Shown piece after piece: positions 4,053 through 30,920 of a stretch of DNA of 39,037 nucleotides. Location: the UHGV virus genome UHGV-2079062. One strand, 5' to 3'. Numbering within the stretch: the stretch's first letter is position 1; every line of letters begins with the position of its first letter. The position numbers and the translations under genes were made by a program. Origin of the DNA: a virus. Below the pieces are notes generated by a model. That model saw only the letters and a list, made by a program, of their open reading frames with translations, did not search any database and was not told where the DNA came from.

Positions 4053-4055
4053 GGA

Positions 4056-9094: not shown

Positions 9095-9114
9095 CTTGTA
9101 ATGAATTTTATTAA

Positions 9115-9645: not shown

Positions 9646-9680
9646 TTTTCGCCTATTAACATTTTTCTAAATGTGCATTA

Positions 9681-9708
9681 ATTCTATCACTCTATTTATG
9701 ACTTACAA
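9681..9708 (-). promoter_or_regulatory. candidate sigma70 promoter for the moron (TTGTAA-N16-TAGAAT)
   Basis: Minus-strand -35 TTGTAA (9708..9703) and -10 TAGAAT (9686..9681), about 35 nt upstream of the moron ATG; by eye only. Confidence 0.35.
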
Positions 9709-9736
9709 CCAGCAATACATGTGAGGGGAATCCTGG

Positions 9737-11569: not shown

Positions 11570-11710
11570 GTGTGCGTTTCTCCTGCTCTATCCTGTTTGC
11601 CTGACTGACCAGCAAGGGAATTTCACTGATCGGCATATTCAGCAATTCGAAGGGATTAATGCGCCAGTAGCTGGCGCAGTCAAAGAAGCGATCAGTGAGG
11701 TATTCAGCCG

Positions 11711-11980
11711 TCAGGCCTGGAGGAAAAAACCAGCCACAAGCCACGCCGCTGCATTCAGGTCTGCCGGAGACATCTGGTCGACAGAGCTTTGCGGCACTTT
11801 CGCCAGCCGCACAATGTATTTCGACACCACATGCGCCAGAAGTCTGACGGACTCATCCTGATTCATCTGGTAGGGATACCCCAGCTCGCGGACATCCTTC
11901 CCGGTGGGTTCATCAAACTCCAGTACGGAGAGTGTCTCACCATGAGCGATAATCGGTTTCTTTAACTCAAGCTCTTTCAT
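11711..11980 (-). CDS. phage tail assembly chaperone (G-like); -1 frame extension runs to 11562
   Basis: 89-aa ORF between tube and tape measure genes; an overlapping -1 frame ORF (11562..11744) begins at a TTTTTTC slippery heptamer (forward 11723..11729) and ends at the tape measure start. Confidence 0.6.
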   Translation of the reverse strand: MKELELKKPIIAHGETLSVLEFDEPTGKDVRELGYPYQMNQDESVRLLAHVVSKYIVRLAKVPQSSVDQMSPADLNAAAWLVAGFFLQA

Positions 11981-12336
11981 TACTGGTAATCCCCTTCTTC
12001 ACCGTGGAACTCAAGATCAACCGTGCCTTCTTCGGCATTATGGTTCGCTTCTCCGTGCAGCCAGGCGGACGACAATACATAGACCTGACCGTTCGCCAGC
12101 TCGGCAGTGATGGTCATCTCATCAGACGAGGTGATTTTGCTCACCGGAAAATTCTTCGGCACCTTGAAGGTCCCTTTGACATAAGGCGCACGGTGAGTTT
12201 CCTTGCGGTCCACTGAACCGTCCAGGCCGATGATGTCATCATTGACCGTCCTGTTCATGGGCACCTCAATGCCGCCGGTCAGCGATAGCTGCTGACCGTC
12301 AATTTTGAAATAACAGGTTCCCCCGATACGGGCCAT
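11980..12336 (-). CDS. phage major tail tube protein (Mu gp40-like)
   Basis: 118-aa ORF immediately downstream of the sheath gene with ATGA overlap. Confidence 0.75.
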   Translation of the reverse strand: MARIGGTCYFKIDGQQLSLTGGIEVPMNRTVNDDIIGLDGSVDRKETHRAPYVKGTFKVPKNFPVSKITSSDEMTITAELANGQVYVLSSAWLHGEANHNAEEGTVDLEFHGEEGDYQ

Positions 12337-13832
12337 TATGCAGACTCCTCTGAATACTGAAGACGGAACTGGTTAACCACGGCAAAAACACGCAACTGGT
12401 TAACATAGTCAGGCGGGAACAGCGTGTTCAGGCGGTTCGGATCGCTGGCATCACGCTCCACAACCAGGTACTGCTTAAACAGTTCGTAGTTTTCCACGAT
12501 CCCCGCACGCTCAAGCTGACGGTAGGTTGCCAGCAGTTCCCCTTTGATTACCGCCGGGGTGACAATCGCCTGACCGGGACCAAAGCGGGTACCGTCGCTG
12601 GCAAGCTTGTGACGCCCGTACTTACTGGTAATGACGGATTTCAGTTTGCGCAGTACATACGCACTGGTATGCAGCGTCTCGCTGTCGAGGTAGCTGTTAT
12701 CCGCAACCCCGTAAGCATTTTTCCTGTACGTGGTGACATCACGCTGAATGCGCAGCACCCCGCTTTCGACATACGCCGTTGCCACGCCATGAGACAGCAG
12801 GGTCTGCTGCTCGGTCATCGTGAACCGTTTCCCCTTCGGCGCAGGCAGCATACCCACCAGCTCACCGGTCTGCGTGGGACGTGCCGGATCGTTGCGGATA
12901 AACACCGCTGCGCGGGCGGTACGGCTTGCCGCCAGCTCGTCGGCAGGCGTCTGGGTGTCTTTTTCGTACCCCGCCAGGGTAATGTGCTGCTGGTTAAACT
13001 GGTCACCTGCGGTCACCAGTTCTGACAGCGTGCCGATCTTTGCCGTATACACATGACCATACAGCTGACGCGCATAGCTCCAGCGACCGCTGGTATCGTT
13101 CATCTCGGTCACCAGCGTGTTAACGGAGGCCGTGTCGTTGAACGGCAGGCCGATATAATCAAACGGCTCATCCGCCATTGCAGCCACCGCGCCGGTGAGA
13201 ACAGGAGCGCCCGTTCCGGCGTTCCCCGTCGCCACGGCAATCTGTACGCCCGCTGGCAGCACTTCGCCCCCACCGAAGCCGTAGTAATTGAGGCTGACAG
13301 GAATTTCATTCCCGCAAAGCCCCTTATGGCGAGCGGTCAGTGTAACCACACCAGCCGAAGATGAGGCCGTAAACGGCAGGGCCGGAACGGCATTGATGGC
13401 ATCTTTGATACTGCTGGCAATCGTCGCGACGTTATCGCCGTTGGTCACCGGTGCCTGCACGCGGGTACGTCCCACATAAACATTCACCGTGCCGGTTTCG
13501 GTTGCTGCCCCGGTCACCGTCAGCGTAACTGTTGCCGCCGCGCCTGTGGATTCAGGAACGGCAATCACATACAGCTCGCCAAACGGGTCAGTCTGGCGAT
13601 AAGCCTCGACCATACGCGCCAGCTGACTTCCCGCACCACAAATCTGGCGTGCATAGTCTGCCGACGGCATCAGTACCAGACTGTTGGCAACAATCTCTGC
13701 ACCGTTATTGGCATGACCAATCAGCAGCGATGCTCCGCTGTCCTGTGCAGTATTCGCCGCCTGGTTATCCATTTCCGCATAAAACAACGGAACCAGCGTA
13801 TTCGACGGAATGGTGTTAAAGCTTATCGTCAT
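12336..13832 (-). CDS. phage tail sheath protein (Mu L / gp39-like)
   Basis: 498-aa ORF, size and position typical of contractile tail sheath. Confidence 0.85.
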   Translation of the reverse strand: MTISFNTIPSNTLVPLFYAEMDNQAANTAQDSGASLLIGHANNGAEIVANSLVLMPSADYARQICGAGSQLARMVEAYRQTDPFGELYVIAVPESTGAAATVTLTVTGAATETGTVNVYVGRTRVQAPVTNGDNVATIASSIKDAINAVPALPFTASSSAGVVTLTARHKGLCGNEIPVSLNYYGFGGGEVLPAGVQIAVATGNAGTGAPVLTGAVAAMADEPFDYIGLPFNDTASVNTLVTEMNDTSGRWSYARQLYGHVYTAKIGTLSELVTAGDQFNQQHITLAGYEKDTQTPADELAASRTARAAVFIRNDPARPTQTGELVGMLPAPKGKRFTMTEQQTLLSHGVATAYVESGVLRIQRDVTTYRKNAYGVADNSYLDSETLHTSAYVLRKLKSVITSKYGRHKLASDGTRFGPGQAIVTPAVIKGELLATYRQLERAGIVENYELFKQYLVVERDASDPNRLNTLFPPDYVNQLRVFAVVNQFRLQYSEESA

Positions 13833-13986
13833 CGGTGTTCACCTTTTTATTCACGCGCCGGATATCACCCGCGGCTTCACGGCGCAGCCAGTAGTTGTTC
13901 TCGTCAACATTTCGCCCTTCGGCGGGCAAAAGGTCGCCGCGGGCAGGGTCAGGCACTGACCGCCCTTTAACAGGTTTCACAAACAT
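13816..13986 (-). CDS. small phage protein (DUF2635-like) upstream of sheath gene
   Basis: 56-aa ORF (MFVKPVKGRSVPDPARGDLLPAEGRNVDENNYWLRREAAGDIRRVNKKVNTDDDKL) translated by hand; too short for the ORF track; overlaps the sheath start by 17 nt. Confidence 0.45.
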   Translation of the reverse strand: MFVKPVKGRSVPDPARGDLLPAEGRNVDENNYWLRREAAGDIRRVNKKVNTDDDKL

Positions 13987-13994
13987 GATGATTC

Positions 13995-14555
13995 TCAGGA
14001 AGGAAGGGTTATTTCGGTGTGATGTTCGATATCGCCGTCAGGCCCGTTACCGGGATCGAGATAATCAACATCAATCGCCAGCGTTCGCAGTTCATCCAGA
14101 CTGTTCAGGTCATCCTGCTGGCGGGTATCGTCTTCAGTCAGCTCGCTGATGACCGAAAAATCGAACTGATAAATCAGCTCATGACGATTCAGATCCAGCA
14201 GCGTACCGCCGTCATAGGTAATCGGGTTACCGCACGCTTCCGGGTTCCAGCCCAGCAGAGCCTTAAAGAGCATCTGCCGGACATCGTCCACCACATCATA
14301 CGAGGCAAACTGACCGCGCTCATCACGCCCGTTACTCAGTATGACAACCACGGAGAAGCCCTCTTTCAGCTCCTGCCAGTAGTCGGTCTGGCTTTTGTTT
14401 TCTCCCGGAGAGTCATCACCCGGTACCACATATGCCGCCGGGAGCTTCAGCTTTCCGACCTCCGGCAGATTTTTGAACTGGGCCGCGCCTGCAACCCGGT
14501 TTTCAAAATACGGACAGCGGGCACGCAGTGCAGCAATAACAGGCGTCAGTTTCAT
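13995..14555 (-). CDS. Mu gp37-like phage protein (DUF1834 family), tail completion region
   Basis: 186-aa ORF in head-tail joining region; assignment by synteny and recalled family. Confidence 0.5.
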   Translation of the reverse strand: MKLTPVIAALRARCPYFENRVAGAAQFKNLPEVGKLKLPAAYVVPGDDSPGENKSQTDYWQELKEGFSVVVILSNGRDERGQFASYDVVDDVRQMLFKALLGWNPEACGNPITYDGGTLLDLNRHELIYQFDFSVISELTEDDTRQQDDLNSLDELRTLAIDVDYLDPGNGPDGDIEHHTEITLPS

Positions 14556-15058
14556 CTGTGTCGTCGCTCCGGCTTCAGTGATTTACGCAATTCCCGCGCC
14601 AGAAAATAGCGTGTCCAGCTGCGGTTCTTTTCAAGAGTTTCCACCATGAAGTTATTACGTGGAGCCAGTCGCCAGCCGCTGCCACCGGATGCACCACGAT
14701 GATGGCTGCGACGACGCTTTGCCCCTCGCCTCACGCCATAGAACAAAAAAGCCGGATAAAAATCACCGGTGATACGGCGATTTCCCTCTCCATTACGCTG
14801 GTTAGGGGCTATACGTGCCATAAAACCAGGGCGATGTTTACTGGCTCTGGGTACCATGTAACCAATCGAACGAGCCAGGCGTCCGGTCTGATAACCGGGG
14901 TTTTCACCCGGTGCCGACCGCGCACGGCGCATCACCAGCCGACGGGCATCACGCATATGACGCTGACCAATCGTGACAAACGCCCGCCGGACACGGGCGC
15001 GGTTAAAGCGCATCTCCGCGGGCTGCTGAAAATCAACGTGCAAAAAGGAAGTCGTCAT
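14552..15058 (-). CDS. phage virion morphogenesis / tail completion protein (Mu G or HK97 gp10-like)
   Basis: 168-aa strongly basic ORF overlapping neighbours by 4 and 26 nt. Confidence 0.5.
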   Translation of the reverse strand: MTTSFLHVDFQQPAEMRFNRARVRRAFVTIGQRHMRDARRLVMRRARSAPGENPGYQTGRLARSIGYMVPRASKHRPGFMARIAPNQRNGEGNRRITGDFYPAFLFYGVRRGAKRRRSHHRGASGGSGWRLAPRNNFMVETLEKNRSWTRYFLARELRKSLKPERRHR

Positions 15059-15443
15059 TGTTGCCTCCGTGACTCTGCCTACATTCGCCCAGCTCCGTAC
15101 ACTCCAGCAGCAGAAAGCGCCGCGCCCCGTTCAGATCACGCTGACGTTTCACCCGATACACACTGTCATCACAGACCACCTCATAATCAGCAGTGATCCC
15201 CCGGCGGTAGCGAATGGTGATGTAATGGGTGATGGCGTCTCCGATCTGCGCGGTTTCCTGCCAGGTGGTGGCACTGGTCTGGATAACCTTCGCCCATGCC
15301 CGGAACGCAACCGGGTATTGAGGCTCCACGCCAAAGTTATCCGCGGGCATATCCACCCGCTGGCGGATCAGGACGCGTTTATTCAGCTCGCCTGGGTCAG
15401 GCAGAATGTAGGTTGCGCTGGTCTGCGCCTGACGAATTTTCAT
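15033..15443 (-). CDS. head-tail adaptor / head closure protein
   Basis: 136-aa ORF between connector and morphogenesis genes. Confidence 0.5.
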   Translation of the reverse strand: MKIRQAQTSATYILPDPGELNKRVLIRQRVDMPADNFGVEPQYPVAFRAWAKVIQTSATTWQETAQIGDAITHYITIRYRRGITADYEVVCDDSVYRVKRQRDLNGARRFLLLECTELGECRQSHGGNNDDFLFAR

Positions 15444-15763
15444 TGCGGAAAGTACCTGTACGGGCCGACAAGCCAGCCAAAACTCTGCGGCATGTCGAGT
15501 TTCTCCACTTCCGTAACCGACGAGCGGTTTTCGTAAAAATGGCTGATAAGCATCAGCATCCCCAGACGAATATCATCCGGCAGGTGCAGCCCGTCCGGAT
15601 CGCTGTCCGGAATGGTTTTATCCGGTGCATAGAGCTTCCGGTTCAGATACGTTTCCGTCCGCTTTTGTGCCGCACAGGCCAGCAGTTGCAGATGGCGGTC
15701 ATCAGCATCGAAATCCTCATCCAGCCGGAGTTGGGCTTTAATCTCTTCCATTGTCAGAAGCAT
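15440..15763 (-). CDS. phage head-tail connector protein (gp6-like)
   Basis: 107-aa acidic ORF immediately after the capsid region. Confidence 0.55.
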   Translation of the reverse strand: MLLTMEEIKAQLRLDEDFDADDRHLQLLACAAQKRTETYLNRKLYAPDKTIPDSDPDGLHLPDDIRLGMLMLISHFYENRSSVTEVEKLDMPQSFGWLVGPYRYFPQ

Positions 15764-15765
15764 AC

Positions 15766-15966
15766 TCAGCCCTCTTTACTGGTCGTGGCTTTTTTCTCTT
15801 TTGCCGCTTTACTGCTTTTTGCACTGATTCCGCGCTCTGCTAACCCGGCCTGAAGTGCAATCTCCTGCACCCGGGCAGGAAGCGCCCCGTCGTCATACTC
15901 ACCGGCCCGAATGACCTCAACACGCATACCGTCCGGTGACCATTTCAGATCTTGTTTCAGTATCAT
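15766..15966 (-). CDS. small hypothetical head-module protein
   Basis: 66-aa ORF between major capsid and connector genes; Lys-rich C-terminus; function unknown. Confidence 0.35.
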   Translation of the reverse strand: MILKQDLKWSPDGMRVEVIRAGEYDDGALPARVQEIALQAGLAERGISAKSSKAAKEKKATTSKEG

Positions 15967-16015
15967 GATTCTTCACCCGTCAAAACAGGGGGCGCGGTTC
16001 CGCGCCCCTGAATGA

Positions 16016-17221
16016 TTACGCCGCTGCAATCTTCAGCAGTTTGATGGCCTGCGAATCGACCAGCATCCCGCCGGTGCGCTTGGTGGTATAAAAACCGACA
16101 AACGGTTTATTGGTGTACGGGTCACGCAGAATGCGGGTGCCGATACGGTCAACGATGGTGTAACCCCGTTTGAAGTTACCAAATGCAATGGCTTTCGCAT
16201 CAGCGGCGATATCCGGCATCTGTTCGTTTTCAGCGATACCGTAACCCGCCAGAGAGGACGGCTGCCCCAGTTCCAGCCCTGGACGCCACAGATAGTTACC
16301 CTCGCTGTCTTTAAGCAGACGGATGGCAAACAGGCTGTTGTTGTTCATCATGAACTTCGCGCCAGTGCGGTGTGCCTTACGCAGCGTGTAAATCAGTTTG
16401 ATAATGGCGTCTGCGGTCACCGCGGTCGCTTCGCCGGATACAATATGCTGAAGTTTGCCGAACGCCCGGACCTTGTCGGTTTCATCAGTGGATTCATACG
16501 CCAGGAACCCTTTCGGCTTCTTGGTGCCATCGCCTGAGGTAAAGGCAATTTCTTCCTGTTCGGCAAATTCGGTTGCCAGCTCGCTGTTGATCCATGCCTC
16601 CACGTTGAAGAAGGCATCGTCCAGCATTTTCTGGGTAGCCTGCGGGTTGCCGTAGATTTCCCCCATGAGAGGTTCAATCAGCTCCAGTCTGGAGGTGGCA
16701 GTCTGGGATCGCGCGTCAGTCTCGCCAACCCATCCGGAAGCCGTACCGCCCAGATTCACCAGTTTTTTGTAGTCGGAGCCGCCAACGGTGATCACCGTGG
16801 CTTCCTGACGCATCACCACTTCATCTTTCAGCAGGTTAAGAATGTTGCGATCCAGTTCTTCCGGCACGGCGTAGCCACCGTCTTCATCGGTGCCCACCTG
16901 CAATGCCTTACGCTCCAGATCGCGCAGACCGTCTTCACGGCCTTTACGCAGGAAGCCCACAAACGCCTCTTTATGCTCGGTGGCCAGTTTATTTTGCGCT
17001 CCACCTGCCGGACGTTTCAGCTCAAGCAGCTCTTTTTCAAGGTCGCTTTTGAGATTTTCCAGCTCGCTGAGTTTCCCGTTCAGGGTTTCCACCTGCCCGG
17101 CAAGCTTGCCTTTTTCCTGCTCAATCGCATCCACGCGCTTGTCGTTCTTTGCTTTGAAGTCGTCAAACTTCTGCTGCAGCTCCTGCGCGACCTGTTCGAC
17201 ATCTTTAATATCAACCGCCAT
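16016..17221 (-). CDS. HK97-family major capsid protein
   Basis: 401-aa ORF with coiled-coil-like N-terminal delta/scaffold domain followed by HK97-fold capsid region; follows prohead protease. Confidence 0.9.
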   Translation of the reverse strand: MAVDIKDVEQVAQELQQKFDDFKAKNDKRVDAIEQEKGKLAGQVETLNGKLSELENLKSDLEKELLELKRPAGGAQNKLATEHKEAFVGFLRKGREDGLRDLERKALQVGTDEDGGYAVPEELDRNILNLLKDEVVMRQEATVITVGGSDYKKLVNLGGTASGWVGETDARSQTATSRLELIEPLMGEIYGNPQATQKMLDDAFFNVEAWINSELATEFAEQEEIAFTSGDGTKKPKGFLAYESTDETDKVRAFGKLQHIVSGEATAVTADAIIKLIYTLRKAHRTGAKFMMNNNSLFAIRLLKDSEGNYLWRPGLELGQPSSLAGYGIAENEQMPDIAADAKAIAFGNFKRGYTIVDRIGTRILRDPYTNKPFVGFYTTKRTGGMLVDSQAIKLLKIAAA

Positions 17222-17235
17222 CGTATTTCTCCTGA

Positions 17236-17922
17236 TTAGAAGTTCAGATTTTTCAGTGCATTCAGTGCAGAGCTCACATCCTCAGCGTCGCGCAGGGACA
17301 GTGCGCCATAGCCCCCGGCCATGAATGCTTTGGCCTGGGTACGGGAGAGTCCGACATCACGCAGGACTCTTTCGATTTTTTTCTGTTCGGGGATTTCCCC
17401 GCGGGCCAGCGCGTTCTTGACGTCGCTGATCCGCGCCTCGTCGTTAGACGGGAACGTCACCAGACTGACTTCCCAGAGGTCGATTTCTTTCAGCAGAAAG
17501 GCTTCTTTCGTCCGGTCGTATTCCCAGTCTTTCAGGACGTACCCAATAGAAAGGCCGGTTAACGAACCGGCCTTCATGTGTGCATGTGCGCGTTTTGCGA
17601 GGGGATCATCATCAATAAGCAACCGTCCCCTGACGTAAAGCCCGACATCGTCTTCCTTCATTTCGGTGTAAACACCGATGGGTTCATCCATGCGGTGCTG
17701 CCAGAGCAGCGCAGGTAACGCTTTTCTGTCACTCCACGCCCGCAGGGAAGCGGCAAATGCCCCTGACATCACCACATCATCGTGGCTGTCCTTTACACCA
17801 AAGACGGAGCCATACCCTTCAAACTCACCGGAGTCACTGACAGATTTCAGACTCAGCGGTACATCAAGACGTTGTTTCGTCTGCATTGGCGTTATCCTTC
17901 TGCTTACCGGCTTTACTGCCAT
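17236..17922 (-). CDS. HK97-family prohead protease
   Basis: 228-aa ORF between portal and capsid genes; overlaps portal end. Confidence 0.85.
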   Translation of the reverse strand: MAVKPVSRRITPMQTKQRLDVPLSLKSVSDSGEFEGYGSVFGVKDSHDDVVMSGAFAASLRAWSDRKALPALLWQHRMDEPIGVYTEMKEDDVGLYVRGRLLIDDDPLAKRAHAHMKAGSLTGLSIGYVLKDWEYDRTKEAFLLKEIDLWEVSLVTFPSNDEARISDVKNALARGEIPEQKKIERVLRDVGLSRTQAKAFMAGGYGALSLRDAEDVSSALNALKNLNF

Positions 17923-19105
17923 CGGAGGGTTTCGTGGTCATGTTCATCGGTGTGAGATAGACATCACCACCGGGACGCGGATTCATATCTTCCAGGTCGC
18001 GGCAGTCATTGGGAGAGTAAATTCCCCAATTGATCCCGGTAGCGTAGGCTTCAAAACGGGACTTCATATCCCCACGCAGTAAGGCCCCGGCGTTAAATTT
18101 GGCGTAATAAACGCCCTGCTTACTTTTTCGTACCAGTCCGGTGTTGATCCGCTGCTCAATGCGGGTCAGATACGGCACCAGTGAATAGTTGATAAATCCC
18201 AGCCCCAGCTCTTCGATATTGTTGAAGGTGGCGCGATCGGTGTTCTGCACCATGTGCAATGGCACCCGGAACAGACGACAGATTTCTTCAAGCTGAAACT
18301 TGCGGGTTTCCAGGAACTGGCTGTCCTCGGCGTTCAGCGCCATCGACTTCCAGTCCAGCCCCATCTCAAGGATCATCGGGCGGTGAGCATTGCCAAGCCC
18401 GGTGTGACGCTCCTCAAAATCTTTCTTCAGGCGCTCATAAGCCTGATCTGACAGCGTCTGCTCTGTACGCAACACACCCGACGTCACCGCGCCATTGCTG
18501 AACAGTCTGGCCCCGTGCTCTTCGGTCGCTGCCGCCAGCGATATTGCCTCGCGGGCATAGGCGATGGGATTCAGCCCCACCAGTCCGTCCAGCGTCAGCG
18601 TGCGCACATGCCAGATATCTTCCTGGCTCAGTACATCCGTGGAGCCATCCGGGAATGTGACCTGATAGACCGGCTCCCAGCTACTGTTAAGCTTCGGTAC
18701 CACACAGCCGGGATCGACGGGCAGCAGTTCAGCCACTTCGCCAAATGCTTTCACTTTGTAGGCGTAAAAGTTTCCCCGCAGGCACAGACAGGTGACCACC
18801 AGCTCCCAGAACTCCTGCGGCGTCATATAGCCATTGGGATGCGTGGAGATCAGCTTATGCAGACGTTCGCCAGTGGCTCTCTGCTTCAGGCTGCCGTTCA
18901 GGTGATACAGGTTGCAGGGCAACATCCCGACCGACTCCGCCAGCACCCTGACACAGGAAAAAACCGCCGTCAGTCGCATGGCCCGCTGGCTGCTGATCTG
19001 CTTTCCGGTATAGGTGTCGTAGGACAACCCGATAGCCTCCGCCAGCTCTGCTGGCGTGGTCACCGGTGCGTCACTTTTTCGTTGAAATAATCCCGAAAAG
19101 AACAC
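17864..19105 (-). CDS. phage portal protein (HK97 family)
   Basis: 413-aa ORF downstream of the terminase. Confidence 0.9.
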   Translation of the reverse strand: MFFSGLFQRKSDAPVTTPAELAEAIGLSYDTYTGKQISSQRAMRLTAVFSCVRVLAESVGMLPCNLYHLNGSLKQRATGERLHKLISTHPNGYMTPQEFWELVVTCLCLRGNFYAYKVKAFGEVAELLPVDPGCVVPKLNSSWEPVYQVTFPDGSTDVLSQEDIWHVRTLTLDGLVGLNPIAYAREAISLAAATEEHGARLFSNGAVTSGVLRTEQTLSDQAYERLKKDFEERHTGLGNAHRPMILEMGLDWKSMALNAEDSQFLETRKFQLEEICRLFRVPLHMVQNTDRATFNNIEELGLGFINYSLVPYLTRIEQRINTGLVRKSKQGVYYAKFNAGALLRGDMKSRFEAYATGINWGIYSPNDCRDLEDMNPRPGGDVYLTPMNMTTKPSDGSKAGKQKDNANADETTS

Positions 19106-19287
19106 TATTTACCTCCGCCGACAGACGACTGTGTACGGTCGAGATATCGCGCCACCAGCCACGACCAGAACAGGCACAACGCCCCGGCAACAACAAACCC
19201 CGCCGGGGGATAAATCAGCCAGGCACCATACGCCAGCAAAAGCGCCCCCAGCACGCCCACCAGAGGCGCGAGAATCAGCATGATCAT
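19105..19287 (-). CDS. small hydrophobic protein (two predicted TM helices) between terL and portal
   Basis: 60-aa ORF with GAGGT ribosome-binding site 7 nt upstream; stop overlaps portal start. Confidence 0.4.
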
Positions 19288-19298
19288 AATTACCTCAG

Positions 19299-21027
19299 TT
19301 AAAGCGAGCGGATCCCATAGGACTCAATGTGGTCAGACAGCGTGTCTTCTTTCCCGTACAGCATGGCTCTGCCAACCGCCATAATCAGCGCCACTGCACC
19401 ATCGATTTTGTTTTCCGCCTGCTCTTTGACGGGCTTCACCACATCATCGTTACCCGGAATGGTTTTGCCGACCACGTTGCCGATACACCAGGTCATGATG
19501 GGATTGCCATCATGATGAAAGCGCCCCGATTCAATTGCCGCTTCCAGCTCTTTCATCGGGTCGGACATGTTGGTGTAGTTCTGAATGATAGTGATGGGGT
19601 TCAGGTCTTCATCAGCAAGGTCATGTGACAACCCGGTCGCCCCGAAGGGGTCGATGGGTGACTCACTGACCGGGCTGATTTTGTTCGCCGCTTTGGCCTC
19701 CTCGAGGATGTAGCGATAATCCACCTCCGCACCATCGGTAACGGTCAGAACGCCCATTTCCACCCATTTCTGAAAGCGTTCGGCTGTCCGGCGATCTTCA
19801 TTTTTCTCGACGCTATACACCGTGTCATACGGTACCCAGAAACGCGGGGCCACACTGTAGTAATGCGTTTTACCGTCAATCTCGCGGGTATAAAGTCGCG
19901 CCATGCTGTTCATATCCAGCTTACGCGCCAGGTCAAAGGCCAGAATGCACGGCTGCCCCTCGAACTGCTCAAGAGTCAGTGATTTATCCTCGCAGCTCTG
20001 CCAGCTCACCAGGTTGAAATACGCCGAACGCGCCGACACCCAGATATTGAGGTGTTTTGTTTTAAAGACGTTTGCCAGACGGGCGTTATTTTTCGCACGC
20101 TGCTGCTGACTTAACAAAAATTCGCGATAAACCGACACGCCAATATTTGGATTGGCTTTTTCCAGCACCTGCGGGTCGGTCCAGTCGTCACCTTCATCAA
20201 CGGTATAGATGATCCCGAACAGTTCATCGTTAGGCACCGAGCCGTTGAGCATCTCGATGACTTCCCGCCGTTTGTCGTAGCACGGCCCCTCAATGTTGTA
20301 CCCGGCGGTGGTGATGGCCCACATCAGTGGCTGACGTCGCGCCCCCATCCCGGTAAGCATTGTGGTATAAAGCGCATCGGTGGCATGCTCGTGATATTCA
20401 TCAACCACGGCACAGTGGGGTGATGAACCATCACCTGGGTTGCCGATCAGCGGTTCAAACCGCGCGCCATCCTCCGGACGGTTCATGTTTGAGGCGTTAA
20501 CCTCAATCCCGAACGCTTCCGTCAGCATGGGTGTGCGTTTACACATCAGTCGCGCCGGGCGAAAGACTTCCCACGCCTGTTTCTCTGTCGTGGCACCGGA
20601 ATACACTTCCGCGCCAAACTCGTTATCACAGGCAAAACAATACAGGGCGACACCGGCAGAGATTGCCGATTTGCCGTTCTTACGGGGGATTTCGGTATAC
20701 ACGGAAGCGGCGCAGCCGGGAGCCTTTATTGACCCAGCCAAACGCACAGCAGATCACAAAGAGCTGCCACGGTTCCAGCGTGATGGGCATCCTCTTGAAT
20801 GCCCACTCCCCCTTGGTGTGTGGCAACAGCTGAATAAATTTCGCGGCCCGTTCAGCCAGGTCCTTGTCGAAGCGGTAACGAAACGACTTACTTTTTTCCG
20901 CCATCAGGTCATCAAGATGGCGCTGGCAGGCCTGAATCACAAACTGGCAGGCCACAATCTTTCCGCGCACGACATCACGGGCATACTGATTGGCAGCATT
21001 TACGTTGGGGTAAGATTTCCGGCTCAT
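19299..21027 (-). pseudogene. terminase large subunit, apparently frameshifted (N-terminal 20680..21027 and C-terminal 19299..20747 in different frames)
   Basis: N-terminal ORF ends ...[19 protein letters not shown] while the +1 frame continues ...[12 protein letters not shown] (Walker A) and the rest of TerL; frame switch localised to about 20690..20705. Confidence 0.75.
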
Positions 21028-21527
21028 GATTCGATGATTTTCAGAAACGGGTTAGTGGCTTTCTTCTGCCCCGCCAGGCCAATCAGACGCTGGCGGCTGC
21101 TGGGGTCGAGTCCGAGCATTGCCCCCGTGCTGCTCATCTCGGACTCCTGTTCTTTCTTGGCGGTCAGCTCCGGATTTTTGACCATACCGCCCATTGCACC
21201 GGTGATGGTGTTGCCCTGTCTGGCAATATTTTTCACGGCACGTCGCCAGAACTCATAGGCCACGCACCACCGCTCAAGTACCGCTAGGTCAGTCACGCAC
21301 AGCAGGCCCTGACCGCAGAGTTCTTTGGTTGTCAGTTGCCACATGATCGTGGCGAGAGGGAGATCCTCTTCAGCGAACCACTCCGGTGGCTCAACACCTT
21401 TGATGGGCGTAAAAACAGGTTCATCTTTGTTCAGGGCTCGCTTGCCGGGGTTTCCGGACAGCGCCTTGCGCGCCGTTGGCTTGGGGCGACGCCCGGAACG
21501 CCCCGCCGTTCCAGCCATATGCGGCAC
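21024..21527 (-). CDS. phage terminase small subunit (P27 family)
   Basis: 167-aa ORF immediately upstream of terL with ATGA overlap; basic N-terminus. Confidence 0.8.
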
Positions 21528-21643
21528 TCCTGGTTAAATTTCATTTTTCGCGGGTATAAAAAAACGATGGGGCGGGCAGTCCGGAAGACGTCAGGCCGCA
21601 GGGATTTGACCCGCCCCTCCCCTCAGGCAGTTGAGAATCATTA

Positions 21644-21994
21644 TCACTTCAACCGTTCACGGGCCGTCTTCGCCTTATGACACGGCCAGCACAGACTCTG
21701 CAGATTACAGTCGGCATCAGTGCCGCCATGCGCTTTAGGGATGATGTGGTCAACAGTTTTCGCCTCACGCACCACACCAGCACGCAGACATAACTGACAC
21801 AGGCCTTTGTCACGCTTCAGAATGCGCGTACGTATAACATCCCACTTAGAACCATAACCACGCTGATGACGGGACTGTCCTGGCTTGTATTGCTTCCAGC
21901 CTTCGCTTTTGTGGCTTTCGCAATAACCTGACGGGTCAGTGGTGGTATGGCGGCAGCCGCGAACACGGCAGGCTTTTGGGGTTCGTGGGGGCAT
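21644..21994 (-). CDS. HNH endonuclease (packaging-associated)
   Basis: 116-aa ORF with Cys-rich zinc-finger and H-N-H motifs (DHIIPKAHGG...N...CWPCH); directly upstream of terS as in HK97-like cos phages. Confidence 0.85.
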   Translation of the reverse strand: MPPRTPKACRVRGCRHTTTDPSGYCESHKSEGWKQYKPGQSRHQRGYGSKWDVIRTRILKRDKGLCQLCLRAGVVREAKTVDHIIPKAHGGTDADCNLQSLCWPCHKAKTARERLK

Positions 21995-22518
21995 ATGTAC
22001 TCCAATGAAGAAACCAGCGAAATAGCTGCCTTCATTCGTAGTAAACCTTTTTCATCAACGCAGTAATGGATTCTTTGAAGAGTCGCGATCAATACAACTC
22101 ACTAATGGAGAGACTTGTCTCACGCATGAGACAAATTTCCCGTTTGATTTAATGGACACTATAGAGGGACAGAATGCCTTCCTCACTCGAATCACATCAA
22201 TTAAGGAGGTTCAACATGTTTCATTCCACAAGTCATCAGGCTGTAATTATGGCAGCATCAGTTTGTGCCAAAGACCTTTTCCGCTTCACTTTGAGCCTGA
22301 TTCATTTCTACCTGACCGGCTCGCCTCTATCTTTTTAATCCCCGCTTTATCCAAATTGCATTGCCATAATGCCGACAACACACTGACATTCAAATCCAGA
22401 CTACCTCCAATAGTCTGACCGTACACCTATATAGTTTTAATTTTCATCAATCCATTTAACTATCGTTTAATTGTTGTCACATAGGATTCTGCTGTTTTTA
22501 ACAATACAGGATAATAAG

Positions 22519-22812
22519 ATGAAAAAAATGTTGTTTTCTGCCGCTCTGGCAATGCTTATTACAGGATGTGCTCAACAGACGTTTACTGTTGGAAACAAAC
22601 CGACAGCAGTAACACCAAAGGAAACCATCACCCATCATTTCTTCGTTTCGGGAATTGGACAGGAGAAAACTGTTGATGCAGCCAAAATTTGTGGCGGCGC
22701 AGAAAATGTTGTTAAAACAGAAACCCAGCAAACATTCGTAAATGGATTGCTCGGTTTTATTACTTTAGGCATTTATACTCCGCTGGAAGCGCGTGTGTAT
22801 TGCTCACAATAA
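22519..22812 (+). CDS. bor: Bor lipoprotein (serum-resistance protein)
   Basis: 97-aa ORF MKKMLFSAALAMLITGCAQQTF... with lipobox LITGC, near-identical to recalled lambda Bor; opposite strand just after Rz, as in lambda. Real start at ATG 22519 rather than track start 22471. Confidence 0.9.
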   Translation: MKKMLFSAALAMLITGCAQQTFTVGNKPTAVTPKETITHHFFVSGIGQEKTVDAAKICGGAENVVKTETQQTFVNGLLGFITLGIYTPLEARVYCSQ

Positions 22813-22843
22813 TTGCATGAGTTGCCCATCGATATGGGCAGCT

Positions 22844-23305
22844 CTATCTGCACTGCTCATTAATATACTTCTGGGTTCCTTCCAGTTGTTTTTGCATAGT
22901 GATCAGCCTCTCTCTGAGGGTGAAATAATCCCGTTCAGCGGTGTCTGCCAGTCGGGGGGAGGCTGCATTATCCACGCCGGAGGCGGTGGTGGCTTCACGC
23001 ACTGACTGACAGACTGCTTTGATGTGCAACCGACGACGACCAGCGGCAACATCATCACGCAGAGCATCATTTTCAGCTTTCGCATCAGCTAACTCCTTCG
23101 TGTATTTTGCATCGAGCGCAGCAACATCACGCTGACGCATCTGCATGTCAGTAATTGCCGCGTTCGCCAGCTTCAGTTCTCTGGCATTTTTGTCGCGCTG
23201 GGCTTTGTAGGTAATGGCGTTATCACGGTAATGATTAACAGCCCATGACAGGCCGACGATGATGCAGATAACCAGAGCGGAGATAATCGCGGTTACTCTG
23301 TTCAT
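22844..23305 (-). CDS. Rz: i-spanin Rz
   Basis: About 153-aa ORF with N-terminal TM helix and coiled-coil periplasmic domain, matching lambda Rz; start taken at MNRVTAII. Confidence 0.85.
22903..23085 (-). CDS. Rz1: o-spanin Rz1, embedded in Rz in the +1 frame
   Basis: 60-aa ORF with lipobox VVGC and proline-rich region ([13 protein letters not shown]), matching lambda Rz1. Confidence 0.85.
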
Positions 23306-23799
23306 TGCTGACCCCACAAACAGATTTCACGCTCAATCTCACGACGAGTCATGAGACCTTTCCATTGCTTACCGCCAGCATATGTCCAGCGACGTAGCTG
23401 ATCACATGCGCCTTTGATATCGCCTTGGTTTATTTTGCGAAGAAGCGTCGATGTTCTGAAATTGCCAGCACCCACGTTGTAAACGAATGAGTAAAGAGCG
23501 CCGCGCATTGTTTCCGGTATATCGACTTTGATGTACGGGTTAATTTGTCTGGCGACCGTGGCAAGGTCTTTATTCAGGAGGGCTTTGCATTCTGCTTTGG
23601 TATACGTTTTACCGAGCATGATGTCTTTTCCTGTATGCCCGTGACATACAGTCCATACACCAACAATATCTTTGTATGGTATGTAGCTGACACCTTCCAG
23701 ACCATCGTTACCACTTGGGCCAGTAATTAACACTGATGCTATAGCAATTGCTCCGCCACCAATAGCAGCAGCAACGGCTTTTCGTAATGATGGAGGCAT
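23302..23799 (-). CDS. R: SAR endolysin (lysozyme, phage 21 R-type)
   Basis: 165-aa ORF with N-terminal Gly/Ala-rich signal-anchor-release domain followed by lysozyme catalytic region. Confidence 0.9.
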
Positions 23800-24014
23800 T
23801 ATTCACCTCTCGCAGCCTTGCGCTTATCTTCTTTAATCTTGAAATAAAGGTTTGTCAGGTACGTCAGCAGGCCAAATACCAGGCTACCCAGCACACCTAT
23901 TGCTGCCCACTGTGAGGGCGTGACTTTATCGAGCAGCTGTAAAAACCAGTAACCGGCACTACCTGCTGAGGTGCCATAGGCGACACCCGTTGTTAACTTA
24001 TCCATGGATTTCAT
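23799..24014 (-). CDS. S: pinholin (phage 21 S-type), dual-start MKSM
   Basis: 71-aa ORF with two TM segments and charged C-terminus; Met1/Met4 dual-start motif. Confidence 0.9.
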
Positions 24015-24575
24015 AACCCCACCTCGCAGACAAAGCGGGTGTAAATTGAGGGAATACTACGAAACGTAACAGACTCGGAGTCAGTGAATAACTCAGGTAT
24101 TGGGTTATCAGCTAATATCGAGACTCAAAAAATGGAAAAACCCGCTCGACGGCGGGTTTAAGCTGTGTGACGAAGTAACCACTCTTAACAGCATAACCAA
24201 TTTTTTACGTACGTAAACCACTAAATGATATTTGCGAGAATGCTACCGAGTATTGAAAACACCACTACAAATACATAAGCAAATCCCAACAAATAATTTC
24301 CAGTGTTATTTTTAGCCGGTTTAAATTGAACCTTCAAATTATAGAGCACTTATAAATAACAGCCGTTAATATAAATTGGCTAATAGATTTATTTTTATTC
24401 AGCAAAGAGCCATGAATAGGATTCGATAGAAAAAAGTTCAGATAAAAATAGAGATCTACTTCACAAATCAAACGAGAAACCAAAACTTACATCTTGAAAT
24501 AATCACATTGATTAGATGAATATTTATCGCGCAGTGACATCATTTTTTAATAATAGTTCAAAAAAAGGGCTCACG

Positions 24576-25673
24576 ATGAAAAAATTAACAGTGGCAATTT
24601 CTGCTGTAGCTGCATCAGTACTGATGGCGATGTCTGCTCAGGCAGCTGAAATTTATAATAAAGACAGTAACAAGCTGGATCTGTACGGGAAAGTTAATGC
24701 TAAGCACTACTTCTCCTCTAATGATGCAGATGATGGTGATACTACTTATGCCCGTCTTGGCTTCAAAGGTGAAACCCAAATCAACGATCAACTGACTGGT
24801 TTCGGTCAGTGGGAATATGAATTCAAAGGCAACCGCGCTGAATCTCAAGGTTCCTCCAAAGATAAAACCCGTCTTGCCTTCGCTGGCCTGAAATTCGGTG
24901 ACTACGGCTCCATCGATTACGGCCGTAACTACGGTGTAGCATACGACATCGGTGCGTGGACTGACGTCCTGCCAGAATTCGGTGGTGACACTTGGACTCA
25001 AACCGACGTGTTCATGACTCAACGTGCAACTGGTGTTGCAACCTATCGTAACAACGACTTCTTTGGTCTGGTTGATGGTCTGAACTTTGCTGCTCAGTAC
25101 CAAGGCAAAAACGATCGTAGCGATTTCGATAACTACACTGAAGGTAACGGTGATGGCTTCGGTTTCTCTGCTACCTATGAATACGAAGGATTCGGTATCG
25201 GTGCAACTTATGCGAAATCTGATCGTACCGACACTCAAGTTAATGCAGGGAAAGTTCTTCCTGAAGTATTTGCTTCCGGTAAAAATGCAGAAGTTTGGGC
25301 CGCAGGTCTGAAATATGACGCTAACAACATTTACCTGGCCACTACCTATTCTGAAACCCAGAATATGACTGTATTTGCTGATCACTTCGTTGCTAATAAA
25401 GCCCAAAACTTCGAAGCTGTTGCACAATATCAGTTCGATTTCGGTCTGCGTCCGTCCGTTGCTTACCTGCAATCTAAAGGTAAGGATCTTGGAGTATGGG
25501 GCGATCAGGACTTAGTCAAATATGTTGATGTAGGTGCAACCTATTACTTCAACAAAAATATGTCTACTTTCGTTGATTACAAAATCAACCTGCTTGACAA
25601 AAATGACTTCACTAAAGCACTCGGTGTAAGCACTGATGACATCGTTGCTGTAGGTCTGGTTTACCAGTTCTAA
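24576..25673 (+). CDS. nmpC: outer membrane porin, OmpC/OmpF/PhoE family (prophage NmpC/Lc-type), apparently intact
   Basis: 365-aa ORF from [23 protein letters not shown] signal peptide to C-terminal ...VYQF; located between Q and the lysis genes on the opposite strand as in DLP12/PA-2. Track ORF 24516 start is an upstream in-frame extension. Confidence 0.9.
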
Positions 25674-25810
25674 TCTGATTACGAAAAAGATATGTTGCGG
25701 GAGGCGTTGCCTCCCCAACATATAAGTGGCTCCCTCAAGCCACTTCCTTTAGAAGCACAACCTTGCTTCTAACTATATAAACCTTCTGTTATATATTACC
25801 CTTTATTTTT

Positions 25811-25835
25811 GGGGGCGTCTCAACGCCCCATTTTT
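25811..25835 (+). terminator. rho-independent terminator downstream of porin gene
   Basis: GGGGGCG-tctcaa-CGCCCC stem-loop followed by TTTTT. Confidence 0.6.
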
Positions 25836-25862
25836 AATAACTTTTAGTAAATAATTGGCATA

Positions 25863-26246
25863 TTAATTAGAGTTATTAACAACGATATCCATCTCTAACC
25901 GGATATCTAATGCCATTAACATCCCTTCAATTATGCCCTCAGCCTTCTGTAACCTTTTCCCGATATAACCATCAGAGCAGCAATGCTTACCTGCCAGTGA
26001 CATGAATGTCATACCGACTACATAATAATCTACTAATAAATCGTGCAAATCGCTGTTGTTCTTTTTCAGACGGGCCATGCACCCGCAAATAATCATCGCG
26101 TCATCGTCACAACATTGCGGGCGAGATTTTACTTTTGAAGTAATTAATCCCTTAAAACCGGCGGCAATGGACGACCAGGTCACATCTTCATGATTATTAG
26201 CCGCCCACGCTCCCCAACGCTCAAGAACCATCTGAATATCACGCAT
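25863..26246 (-). CDS. late-gene antiterminator Q (DLP12 QuuD-like)
   Basis: 127-aa ORF with Cys-rich zinc motif; ATG at 26246 preceded by GGAG; positioned upstream of late/lysis region after rusA-ylcG. Confidence 0.8.
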
Positions 26247-26331
26247 CAACTTACTCCACAAAAATCAGACCAGAACGCCAATTACAAGCAAAAATCAACA
26301 AAACAGTATTAGTTGATTGTTATCTCTGACT

Positions 26332-26469
26332 TCATACTCCTGCTCCTGTCAGGGTTTTGGCGTAATTCTTCAGTATTCGGTAATCGGTCAAAACAGAACT
26401 GGGGAAACGATATAAGCGCAGGCGCATCCAGCGGTGGCGAAGAAGTTCTGCCATATTAAACTCAAACAT
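26332..26469 (-). CDS. ylcG: small protein YlcG-like
   Basis: 45-aa ORF ([45 protein letters not shown]) translated by hand; start overlaps rusA stop (TGATG). Confidence 0.55.
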   Translation of the reverse strand: MFEFNMAELLRHRWMRLRLYRFPSSVLTDYRILKNYAKTLTGAGV

Positions 26470-26831
26470 CATTCATTCCCCATTTCGGTGATGGTCAGTT
26501 CCAGCCTCCCACCTTTGGTAACAGGCATCTTCACAACGCGGTAATCAACGACCTGAGCATCATCCAGCCAGAAACCTGCTTTAGTGAGTGCGTCAAAAGC
26601 GGCTTTTTGCAGATTATCCAGGTCACGGCGACGGCGATCCGGCATGTGGCACTCAATGCGGATTTTCACAGGGATAGCCAGGCCGATATCCAGCATTGCG
26701 TTTTTAATGATTCTGGCGACGTTATCGCGGTATGCCTGCCCCTCTGCGCTGACGTGCGTGCGCCCGCGATTATGGCGGTAATAGCGATTATTGCTCGGAG
26801 GCCAGGGTAATGTGATGCTGTAGGTATTCAC
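26469..26831 (-). CDS. rusA: crossover junction endodeoxyribonuclease RusA (Holliday junction resolvase)
   Basis: 120-aa [21 protein letters not shown]... matching recalled RusA. Confidence 0.9.
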
Positions 26832-26850
26832 GCCTTAATAATCCCCTCTT

Positions 26851-27045
26851 TCAGCCACATAACCTGTGTTTTCGCCATACCTTCCAGCGCGCATTCTTTT
26901 GCATATGCAGCATCGACTTGCTTGGCATGCCCTTTACCGGCAATCTTCTGTATGCGCTAAACCTAGATAGAATCCACTCTGTGCTCATTGAAGCCCGCTC
27001 TATGCTTCCTTTCTGGTATTGAAGGGATTGAGATGGGCTAAGCAT
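26851..27045 (-). pseudogene. ninF-like 5' start fused out of frame to a YbcO/DUF1364-like 3' remnant
   Basis: ORF begins [18 protein letters not shown] (NinF-like) then diverges; a different frame over 26832..26955 encodes ...[29 protein letters not shown] resembling the YbcO C-terminus, preceded by in-frame stops. Confidence 0.4.
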
Positions 27046-27385
27046 TATTGGCCTCCTGCATCAGGAGAAAGACAATCATGGCGGCGCGGAGAGGTCTGGT
27101 ATCAAATATTGGGCTTACGCCTTTTGCATCCACACACCATTCAGTTAACTGGTCTAAGATAGAAATCCTGTATTTCTCAATAATCGGCCATGAAGCGCTC
27201 GGATCATTGCAGTAGTCAGGCAAATGATTTAATGGCTCAAAAGTTGTATCAGCATTTCCGTAATACCATTTGTTGGTGTTATTCCCTGATGTTTCCGGTT
27301 TACTTGCCCAAAGGCCTTTAAAAATTATGTCTCCTACCATTCTGTTAATTTCAAAATCACTTAACTGTGAATAATCCATTGTCAT
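27038..27385 (-). CDS. hypothetical nin-region protein (115 aa)
   Basis: ORF with GAGGAA ribosome-binding site; ATG overlaps stop of upstream ninE-like gene (ATGA); no family recognised. Confidence 0.5.
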
Positions 27386-27563
27386 TTCCTCGCACGATAT
27401 CTTAGCCACCGGATATCCCACAGGTGAGCTGTGTAATTGAAGGTTTTTACGTCAGATTCTTTTGGGATTGNNNNNNNNNNNNNNNNNNNNNGGAGCGTTT
27501 CGTTGGAAGGTATTTGCAGTTTTCGCAGATGATGTCGGTGAAACTTCGTCGCTGTCGCCTCAT
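27382..27563 (-). CDS. NinE-like protein, interrupted by assembly gap
   Basis: N-terminal [24 protein letters not shown] (27563..27492) and C-terminal [28 protein letters not shown] (to 27382) flank the N run; the two halves are not in the same frame across the 21-N placeholder. Confidence 0.55.
27471..27491. other. run of 21 N: assembly gap or masked bases
   Basis: Directly visible in the sequence. Confidence 0.98.
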
Positions 27564-28087
27564 GCCGCCCTCCTGACGCCCTGCCCGATCGCCATCAATG
27601 CCGCTTTGGATACGGTAGTAAACATCCGTCGAGGACTGATGAACGGTCGCCAAATCAGCAGCATGGAGCCTTTGCTGTTTCCCTTCTTCTCCAACCCTGT
27701 CGATGGTTCGATAAAATTAATCCGTCCATCAGTGATAATGCGAACTTCGTCGACACTCTCCAGAGCCTTGCTGAACCATCCGACTGACATATCCTCTGGC
27801 ACAAGCATAACTACCGTCTGTCGCTGTTGTATGCACTGCTCAGCGGCTTTTTCCACCCACGGCCTGATATTGCTGTACGGTGGGTTATTCCAGATTGCAC
27901 CGTGGCTTACCCACTCAGAATTGAGCGCGTCGTCGGCCTCAGTTAGCCAGTGAGCACACAGAGCATTTTTGTCGCTCGCTGCCGAATCCAGCCAGAATCC
28001 AAACTCAATATCCAGTGCATCAAAAAGCCAAAGCGGCGTTTGCCAGCAGTCCTTGTCGTGTGCTGGCGTATTTGATTTGATTGTCAT
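27560..28087 (-). CDS. phage DNA N6-adenine methyltransferase (Dam-like)
   Basis: About 175-aa ORF with NPPY catalytic motif; ATG at 28087 overlaps ninB stop; nin-region position. Confidence 0.8.
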
Positions 28088-28524
28088 GCAGCCCGATCTC
28101 CCCATCTCGCTTTCCACTCCAGAGCCAGTCTCGCTTCGTCTGACCACTTAACGCCACGCTCTGTACCGAATGCCTGTATAAGCTCTAATAGCTCCGCAAA
28201 TTCGCCTACACGCATCCTGCTGGTTGACTGGCCTATTACCACAAAGCCATTCCCGGCAAGGTTAGGAACAACATCCTGCTGCTTTAATGCTGCGGTAAAC
28301 ACACACTTCCAGCTTTCTGCATCCAGCCAGCGACCATGCCATTCAACCTGACGAGAGACGTCACCTAAGCAGGCCCATAGCTTCCTGTTTTGGTCTAAGC
28401 TGCGGTTGCGTTCCTGAATGGTTACTACGATTGGTTTGGTTGGGTCTGGAAGGATTTGCTGTACTGCGTGAATAGCGTTTTGCTGATGTGCTGGAGATCG
28501 AATTTCAAAGGTTAGTTTTTTCAT
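28084..28524 (-). CDS. ninB: NinB (Orf-family recombination mediator)
   Basis: 146-aa ORF MKKLTFEIRSPAHQQNAIHAVQQILPDPTKPIVVTIQERNRSLDQNRKLWACLGDV..., matching recalled lambda NinB. Confidence 0.9.
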   Translation of the reverse strand: MKKLTFEIRSPAHQQNAIHAVQQILPDPTKPIVVTIQERNRSLDQNRKLWACLGDVSRQVEWHGRWLDAESWKCVFTAALKQQDVVPNLAGNGFVVIGQSTSRMRVGEFAELLELIQAFGTERGVKWSDEARLALEWKARWGDRAA

Positions 28525-28597
28525 GACTTCCCTCTCCCCCAAATAAAAAGGCCTGCGATTACCAGCAGGCCTGTTATTAGCTCAGTAATGTAGATGG

Positions 28598-28888
28598 TCA
28601 TCTTTTAACTCCATATACCGCCAATACCCGTTTCATCGCGGCACTCTGGCGACACTCCTTAAAAATCAGGTTCGTGCTCATCTTTCCTTCCCGTTCTTCC
28701 TTGGTAGCAAACCGGTAATACACCGTTCGCCAGACCTTACCTTCGATAACCAGAAGACCTGCCCGTGCCATTTTAGCCGCGGCCTGATTTATGCTGGTTA
28801 CTGTTGCGCCTGTTAGCGCGGCAACGTCCGGCGCACAGAAGCTATTATGCGTCCCCAGGTAATGAATAATTGCCTCTTTGCCCGTCAT
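28598..28888 (-). CDS. ren: Ren protein
   Basis: 96-aa ORF MTGKEAIIHYLGTHNSFCAPDVAALTG..., matching recalled lambda Ren; immediately downstream of P. Confidence 0.85.
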   Translation of the reverse strand: MTGKEAIIHYLGTHNSFCAPDVAALTGATVTSINQAAAKMARAGLLVIEGKVWRTVYYRFATKEEREGKMSTNLIFKECRQSAAMKRVLAVYGVKR

Positions 28889-29586
28889 ACACTTGCTCCT
28901 TTCAGTCCGAACTTAGCTTTGAGTTCTGCGATCTTCGCCAGAGCCTGTGCACGATTTAGAGGTCTACCGCCCATGACAGGAAGTTGTTTTACTGGTTCAG
29001 GGATCGCCTCACCACGGTTAATTCTCGCAGTCATATGGACAAGCTCATCTGCGGCCTTACGGCGTAATTCCGCATCAGTAAGCGCATTGGCCCGCATGTT
29101 CTGATACAGGTTGGTAACCAGCCAGTAGTGCGCGTTTGATTTCCACGGATAAGACTCCGCATCCGGATACAGGCCTCGCTTCCGGCAATACTCGTAAACC
29201 ATATCAACCAGCTCGCTGACGTTTGGCAGCCCGGCGTTAACGGATGCTTCTTCCCGGCACCAGGCGACAAACTGCCCGGGTGATGGCAGGAATGGTCGAT
29301 TCTGCCGACGGGCTACGCGCATTCCTGCGTTAACCTGTTCCATTGTGGTGATCCCGTTTTCCCGGAAAGCCAGAACCCACTGGCGGCGGATTTCGTTCAG
29401 TTCATTCTGGTCACGGTTAGCCAGGCTCGCCGGGAAAGTTGCCAGTAACTGGCTGAACACACCGTTGATGATCTGCGCTACCTGCTGTACCTGCGGCTTT
29501 TCGTCGTACTGTTCCGGCATGTTGTTGGCGATCCGACGCATCTGCTCACGGTCAAAGTTAACCATCTGTGCGGCGATGTTTTTCAT
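28885..29586 (-). CDS. P: replication protein P (DnaB helicase loader)
   Basis: 233-aa ORF matching recalled lambda P; follows O with overlap. Confidence 0.9.
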   Translation of the reverse strand: MKNIAAQMVNFDREQMRRIANNMPEQYDEKPQVQQVAQIINGVFSQLLATFPASLANRDQNELNEIRRQWVLAFRENGITTMEQVNAGMRVARRQNRPFLPSPGQFVAWCREEASVNAGLPNVSELVDMVYEYCRKRGLYPDAESYPWKSNAHYWLVTNLYQNMRANALTDAELRRKAADELVHMTARINRGEAIPEPVKQLPVMGGRPLNRAQALAKIAELKAKFGLKGASV

Positions 29587-30482: not shown

Positions 30483-30514
30483 AATGACTCCTGTTGATAG
30501 ATCCAGTAATGACC

Positions 30515-30814
30515 TCAGAATTCCATCTGGATTTGATTAGAACGCTCGGTCTTGCACACCGGGCGTTTTTTATTGGTGATTTCATCAAGCGCATACTTAA
30601 AAGCTCTGCTAATCGGACTGATGTCTGATGCCATGCCAAAAGCACACAAGACCGAAGCTATAAACCTCCAGTCTGTTCTGCTTATCTTCGATTCATGACA
30701 GCCAATCATCTTTGCCAGACCGCGCTGAGTAAGCGTTGACAGGTTGATAAGTAAATCTGTTTCTGCGCGATCAACGTCGCGCTGTGATAGTTTGCTGTAA
30801 TTTGTTTGTTCCAT
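30515..30814 (-). CDS. cII: CII-like transcriptional activator
   Basis: 99-aa ORF with HTH and C-terminus ...TNKKRPVCKTERSNQIQMEF resembling lambda CII; between cro and O. Confidence 0.8.
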   Translation of the reverse strand: MEQTNYSKLSQRDVDRAETDLLINLSTLTQRGLAKMIGCHESKISRTDWRFIASVLCAFGMASDISPISRAFKYALDEITNKKRPVCKTERSNQIQMEF

Positions 30815-30920
30815 TTCTTACTATTTCCATAGGTAAATAATCACTAATACGCATCTTTCGATGAGTTCTTAATTAGTTACCGCGTTGTCGGCGGTGCAGA
30901 TTGATAAAGAGCGGTGTTAC

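Follow-up and report, generated by a model that had tools for sequence, protein, structure and literature searches.

A large terminase gene in two reading frames

How does the large terminase gene (terL) of a prophage come to lie in two reading frames, and does the break reflect a mutation that silenced the gene, a recoding event or a fault of the assembly? The question arises from the window, i.e., the whole 39,037-nucleotide stretch of DNA analyzed here (UHGV virus genome UHGV-2079062), which holds an SfV/SfII/phiP27-like, HK97-type myovirus prophage of Escherichia coli. Its terL locus occupies 19299..21027 on the minus strand and measures 1729 bp, as against the 1734 bp of intact copies. 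The upstream part is an ORF of 115 aa (20680..21027, minus strand), whose ATG overlaps the stop codon of the small terminase gene terS (ATGA), the same as in intact genes, and which specifies 108 native residues, including ITLEPWQ, before running into the out-of-frame tail VYRNPP and a TAA stop at 20680..20682. The remainder lies in an ORF of 482 aa (19299..20747, minus strand), where 15 out-of-frame residues are followed by native TerL from V110 to the end, comprising the Walker A motif PRKNGKS, the remaining ATPase domain and the nuclease domain. The two ORFs overlap by 68 nt, the 482-aa ORF being in the +1 frame relative to the 115-aa ORF. The first-pass annotation had described exactly this arrangement—terL split by a frameshift, with the continuation carrying Walker A in the +1 frame of the downstream ORF—and both ORFs are confirmed by the ORF listing and the minus-strand sequence, the frame of the continuation by the ORF listing as well.

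With the 1729-bp stretch as query, megablast returned 1414 records from a set of 5426 complete E. coli genomes, and among those covering the whole query almost all are 1734 bp long, are named "terminase large subunit" and adjoin a gene for a "phage terminase small subunit P27 family" protein. The top three E. coli matches (strains BE311, F41 and K99S, annotated as "terminase large subunit") align at 100% coverage and 99.7% identity and are the same as the window gene except for five gap columns. Among phage records, SfII, SfIV, SfV, SfI and vB_EcoM-689R6 carry the gene at 96.8–97.9% nucleotide identity, with ST64B (81%) and phiP27 (75%) as more distant matches. The split is not a chance pattern, as the 1729 bases are the same as BE311 terL bar the gap.

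The intact BE311 protein (577 aa) matches Pfam TerL_ATPase (PF03354) over residues 86–256 and TerL_nuclease (PF20441) over residues 268–557; this protein, which is also the restored window protein, scores 92.5 and 117.5 bits against cut-offs of 23.7 and 24 bits, respectively, and thereby shows the domain order of a large terminase, i.e., an ATPase with Walker A followed by a nuclease. When the fragments are taken singly, the 115-aa stub has no Pfam match, and the 482-aa ORF matches TerL_ATPase from profile position 23 onwards only, along with the full TerL_nuclease domain. Among solved structures HK97 TerL (6z6d_A, E=5e-25) is the nearest, and no other solved relative is detectable by sequence. 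The genomic context is likewise that of a large terminase, 3′ of terS and 5′ of the portal gene, in agreement with the BE311, SfII and C11 annotations. What the window gene lacks is the one continuous ORF of a large terminase, since a 5-bp deletion leaves one ORF at 20680..21027 and another at 19299..20747. It counts by descent as a terL pseudogene and not as a functional member of the family.

A 5-bp deletion between direct repeats

Alignment with three intact homologs (BE311, SfII and C11), which had been proposed as a means of pinpointing the indel, places it as one 5-bp gap at about 20699..20703. This falls within the interval 20690..20705 to which the frame switch had been assigned from the ORFs, and it adjoins the palindrome GTATAC (20695..20700). 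The gap context reads ...CGCTTCC[GTGAG]GTGTATACC..., with a GTG direct repeat on both sides, and the intact codons over the gap are CGC CGC TTC C[GTGAG]GTG TAT ACC GAA ATC CCC CGT AAG AAC GGC AAA TCG. The missing five bases may be GTGAG, TGAGG, GAGGT or AGGTG, four equivalent placements that are indistinguishable, and re-insertion at any of the four positions yields the BE311 gene base for base and an identical 577-aa protein. The junction reads GTGAGGTG if intact and CTTCCGTGTATACC if deleted, with a single GTG (20700..20702, minus strand) kept from the original. The reading frame changes at codon 109 (R108, then E109 and V110), the break lying at codons 109–110, and a stop codon follows seven codons later; an indel that is not a multiple of three relative to intact orthologs and a premature stop, the two marks of a frameshift pseudogene, are both present.

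A deletion bounded by a short (3-bp) direct repeat is a classic signature of slipped-strand mispairing in vivo, and the segment deleted here lay between short direct repeats of which one copy is kept (GTGAGGTG to GTG). Replication slippage between the two GTG triplets is, judging from these end-points, the most likely mechanism of the deletion. The GTATAC palindrome, around which the first-pass annotation had seen the switch, is correctly placed, but any role for it falls away: it is unchanged native sequence in all intact homologs, on which ground a hairpin or a restriction-site effect was rejected as the cause. Because the GTG direct repeat explains the deletion end-points, the palindrome is incidental.

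Genuine deletion or assembly artifact

A genuine 5-bp slippage deletion that inactivated TerL, recent and private to the strain, is the reading favored here, with a probability of roughly 0.8. The opposing view, that the true terL is an intact 1734-bp gene from which consensus calling, polishing or gap closure dropped five bases, appears unlikely, even though the deletion is unique to the window sequence and has no independent corroboration. A 35-mer across the deleted junction and a less stringent 24-mer were each scanned against genome, metagenome and viral contigs with 0 matches, the intact junction as a positive control giving 97 exact matches in viral contigs; among the 5426 complete E. 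coli genomes none matches the window terL at 100%. The deletion is private to the window sequence, which neither proves nor disproves its reality. The terL span is exactly 1734 bp in all 37 full-length E. coli copies of an evenly spread sample and in 29 of the 30 best matches. A 1733-bp terL in E. coli ET846 (NZ_CP100895.1 2029323..2031055) may be an independent 1-bp frameshift or a sequencing error.

Window positions 2538..39037 are collinear with that genome over 36.5 kb at 99.88% identity, and all the differences amount to six substitutions (every one missense or synonymous), the terL deletion, an 11-bp gap and one run of N. Beyond the missing five bases, terL is the intact allele with no secondary degenerative mutation, a state that accords with an artifact but suits a very recent event equally. 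The typical errors of sequencing platforms are 1-bp homopolymer indels, whereas no 1-bp or homopolymer indel is found relative to BE311 over the 36.5 kb; because an error-prone assembly would show such indels, the genuine deletion is favored. The deletion site, moreover, is neither a homopolymer nor a low-complexity tract, and its ends carry the in vivo slippage signature described above. The only other indel in the 36.5 kb is one whole unit of a tandem repeat, the 11-bp CCAACAAATAA (24285..24295, between the holin and porin genes), which occurs once here and twice in tandem in BE311 and is again a slippage-type, biologically typical polymorphism.

On the other side stand two features which suggest that the assembly may be scaffolded or imperfect. 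The first is a run of 21 N at 27471..27491 inside a ninE-like gene, where BE311 has 16 bases (GCTTGCGTTTATTTCT); it represents a scaffold gap or else masked sequence, and nothing else in the window is ambiguous. The second is a junction at the left end bridged by a complete ISEc22 of the IS66 family (about 83..2537, minus strand; tnpC 121..1659, tnpB 1708..2055, tnpA 2052..2456), at whose ends no target-site duplication is present. On the right it abuts the 3′ end of the GIY-YIG cargo gene of the prophage. Its left flank (1..82) was tested for derivation from the Qin-type site seen in strain 23CRST024 and does not come from it, but has 100% identity to a lambdoid "tail assembly protein T" gene that belongs to a different type of prophage. 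Either two prophages were rearranged by way of the IS, or the assembly was joined across it. If the junction is real, the distal att site may also be lost, the distal 49-bp att repeat of BE311 lying about 4 kb beyond the ISEc22 break point; if it is a join across the repeat, confidence in the assembly is slightly lower. The choice offered by the first-pass annotation, an inactivating indel or an assembly error, was thus well framed. The lesion is a 5-bp deletion as measured against more than 1000 intact E. coli copies, and its slippage-type ends, together with the lack of 1-bp indels, tilt the balance toward mutation.

Predicted effect on the packaging motor

Within the ATPase domain, the break falls 3′ of LEPWQ and precedes Walker A (PRKNGKS) by six residues. 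The segment just upstream of it, which remains on the stub, opens the Pfam ATPase profile and resembles the adenine-binding or Q-type segment found ahead of Walker A in terminase ATPases. For T4 gp17 an adenine-binding motif has been described (PMC9958956). In the HMMER alignment PRKNGKS pairs with HK97 ARKNGKT, K118 and K121 of the present protein being K57 and K60 of HK97 TerL once the 10-residue His-tag of the crystallized construct is allowed for. Fung et al. 2022 (PMC9410871) report K57 and K60 to be essential for ATPase activity and packaging and place Walker A between beta-1 and beta-2, which puts the break in the ATPase fold on beta-1 or just ahead of it.

The frameshift at codon 109 would thus yield a 115-aa N-terminal stub of 12.9 kDa, against about 65 kDa for TerL, and beta-1, Walker A, Walker B, the lid and the nuclease domain would be stranded in the other frame without a ribosome-binding site of their own, so that no functional packaging ATPase/nuclease would be expected. 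Judging from the domain architecture, an active TerL is probably not made. After induction, replication, lysis and the building of proheads and tails would still be possible, whereas DNA cutting and packaging would be blocked and no infectious particles would form unless a compatible TerL were supplied in trans. Genomes in the megablast search carry up to 4 terL copies of this family, and a further copy might complement the defect in this way. As predicted from the sequence, the phage is very probably unable to package its own DNA.

Recoding and residual function

The two frames might in principle be joined during translation. Programmed recoding as a feature of the family was rejected because no relative shares the frame change: it is not conserved among the homologs, the aligned or sampled full-length copies being 1734 bp long save the 1733-bp copy of ET846. 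The first-pass annotation had held that TerL is a single polypeptide with no known programmed frameshift; a literature search for one in TerL brought up frameshifts in other genes only, its top match being that of the tail assembly chaperone, and the intact relatives with one continuous ORF all but rule such a mechanism out. Nor does the sequence show a dedicated slippery site: the only slip-prone element, the CCCCC run, belongs to the normal coding sequence of intact genes, and inspection of the ORF overlap revealed no Shine-Dalgarno-like stimulator.

That the split gene still functions, either through a +1 slip on the C-run that rejoins the frames upstream of Walker A or through separate fragments that form an active terminase, is highly improbable. 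CCC-N sites are prone to +1 slips, and at AAU CCC CCG UAA (20680..20691) a tRNA-Pro on CCC could re-pair +1 on CCC, with the stop two codons 3′ perhaps slowing the ribosome; the slipped product would keep the PRKNGKS Walker A and carry the junction peptide VYRNPRK. However, the C-run is native in all intact homologs and hence was not selected as a recoding signal, the split gene occurs in no relative, the slipped product would have VYRNP in place of the beta-1 segment EVYTEIP, and spontaneous slips are usually at about 1% or less. The two-fragment version faces the further difficulties that the cut lies inside the ATPase fold and that all starts retaining Walker A lack a ribosome-binding site. 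None of these candidates, at 20747 (GTG), 20741 (TTG) and 20702 (GTG), has a Shine-Dalgarno-like motif in front of it, and the next in-frame start 3′ of the stub's stop codon, as read from the minus-strand sequence, is beyond Walker A; reinitiation giving a functional C-terminal protein was rejected on these two grounds.

A milder variant, in which the deletion is real but leaky and a low level of +1 slippage on CCC-CCG-UAA gives traces of near-full-length TerL and packaging at a low rate, is scarcely probable either; were it true, the prophage would be attenuated and not dead. In the search for other assemblies with the lesion, an exact-sequence look-up of both ORF products in an index of 153 billion genes had neither on record. 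Such empty exact-protein look-ups are uninformative, as a locus taken for a pseudogene by an annotation pipeline may be given no protein at all.

Comparison with known relatives

The closest relatives of the disrupted gene are the terL genes of the thrW prophages of BE311, F41 and K99S (WP_000088151.1), with the same nucleotides over the whole gene except the 5 bp and the same neighborhood, namely HNH, P27-family terS, terL, ymfR, portal, HK97-type protease and major capsid. The window differs from BE311 in being without GTGAG at codons 109–110, and so frameshifted, and in having ISEc22 at its left end where BE311 runs on into the GIY-YIG cargo gene. The Shigella phages SfII, SfIV, SfV and SfI and the Escherichia phage vB_EcoM-689R6 have the same terS-terL overlap as the window but, unlike it, a continuous 1734-bp terL ORF; since these five records were deposited as phage genomes, sequenced phages carry the intact allele. 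HK97 TerL (PDB 6Z6D) shares the two-lysine Walker A RKNGK[ST] and the ATPase-nuclease architecture; it is, however, distant, intact and active, and the window TerL has about 50 extra N-terminal residues.

A parallel may be drawn with the ymfN remnant in the cryptic prophage e14 of E. coli K-12, a member of this terL family (97.9% identity over query 595–1734) and an established instance of terL function being lost in this phage lineage. There, a large deletion or fusion removed the first third of the gene and the element as a whole is heavily degraded, whereas the lesion in the window is a 5-bp frameshift and terL is the sole disrupted gene in the stretch common to BE311. A frameshifted prophage terminase is a routine and already-known kind of event; the present case is most likely one of ordinary prophage decay, an artifact being less likely, and it raises no new biological question. 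If the deletion is genuine, it illustrates cleanly how prophage domestication begins, a single slippage deletion having hit the packaging motor with all other genes of the shared stretch still matching those of a relative. In practical terms the gene should be annotated as a terL pseudogene and the prophage predicted to be non-infectious, although it looks complete save for terL and the rearranged left end, and this bears on prophage-intactness calls, on what to expect of induction and on phage transfer of the iss/bor and porin cargo.

State of the prophage and its surroundings

In BE311, a near-identical strain, thrW is the integration site of the prophage. Its layout, read by collinearity with the annotation of that strain, combines a lambda-like early region (exo/bet/gam, cIII, N, a cI-like S24 repressor, cII, O/P, nin genes and Q) with an HK97-type head and a Mu/SfV-like contractile-tail module, the remaining genes comprising porin and iss/bor cargo, lysis genes, the packaging and head genes HNH, terS, terL, portal, protease and capsid, and those for tail sheath, tail tube and baseplate. 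The genes around terL are intact and collinear with BE311 with zero differences: on the one side the P27-family small terminase gene terS (21024..21527, minus strand) and the HNH endonuclease gene of the packaging module (21644..21994, minus strand), and on the 3′ side a gene for a ymfR-like small membrane protein (19105..19287, minus strand) and the portal gene (17864..19105, minus strand). Apart from terL, no gene of the shared stretch departs from BE311 by anything beyond a missense change. Since only missense changes are seen elsewhere, either the decay is at an early stage or the lesion is an artifact. The term "cryptic prophage", which had been put forward at first pass, therefore overstates the degree of decay, although the ISEc22 junction at the left end may also have cost the prophage its distal att site.

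Two genes run opposite to the late genes of the phage and look like moron-type cargo. According to the BE311 annotation, they encode an iss/bor-family serum-survival lipoprotein (22519..22812, plus strand) and a porin (24516..25673, plus strand).

The tail region holds two further minor observations. A 304-aa glycine-rich tail-fiber ORF (3138..4052, minus strand), in which two of the six substitutions fall (V214I and A220D), is continuous in both the window and BE311; RefSeq divides the BE311 copy into an stfP pseudogene and a "glycine-rich domain-containing protein", a split that looks like an artifact of annotation. At 11569..11980 (minus strand), about 140 bp separate the tail assembly protein and tape-measure genes, and this gap is the usual place for a −1 frameshift extension of the tail assembly chaperone.
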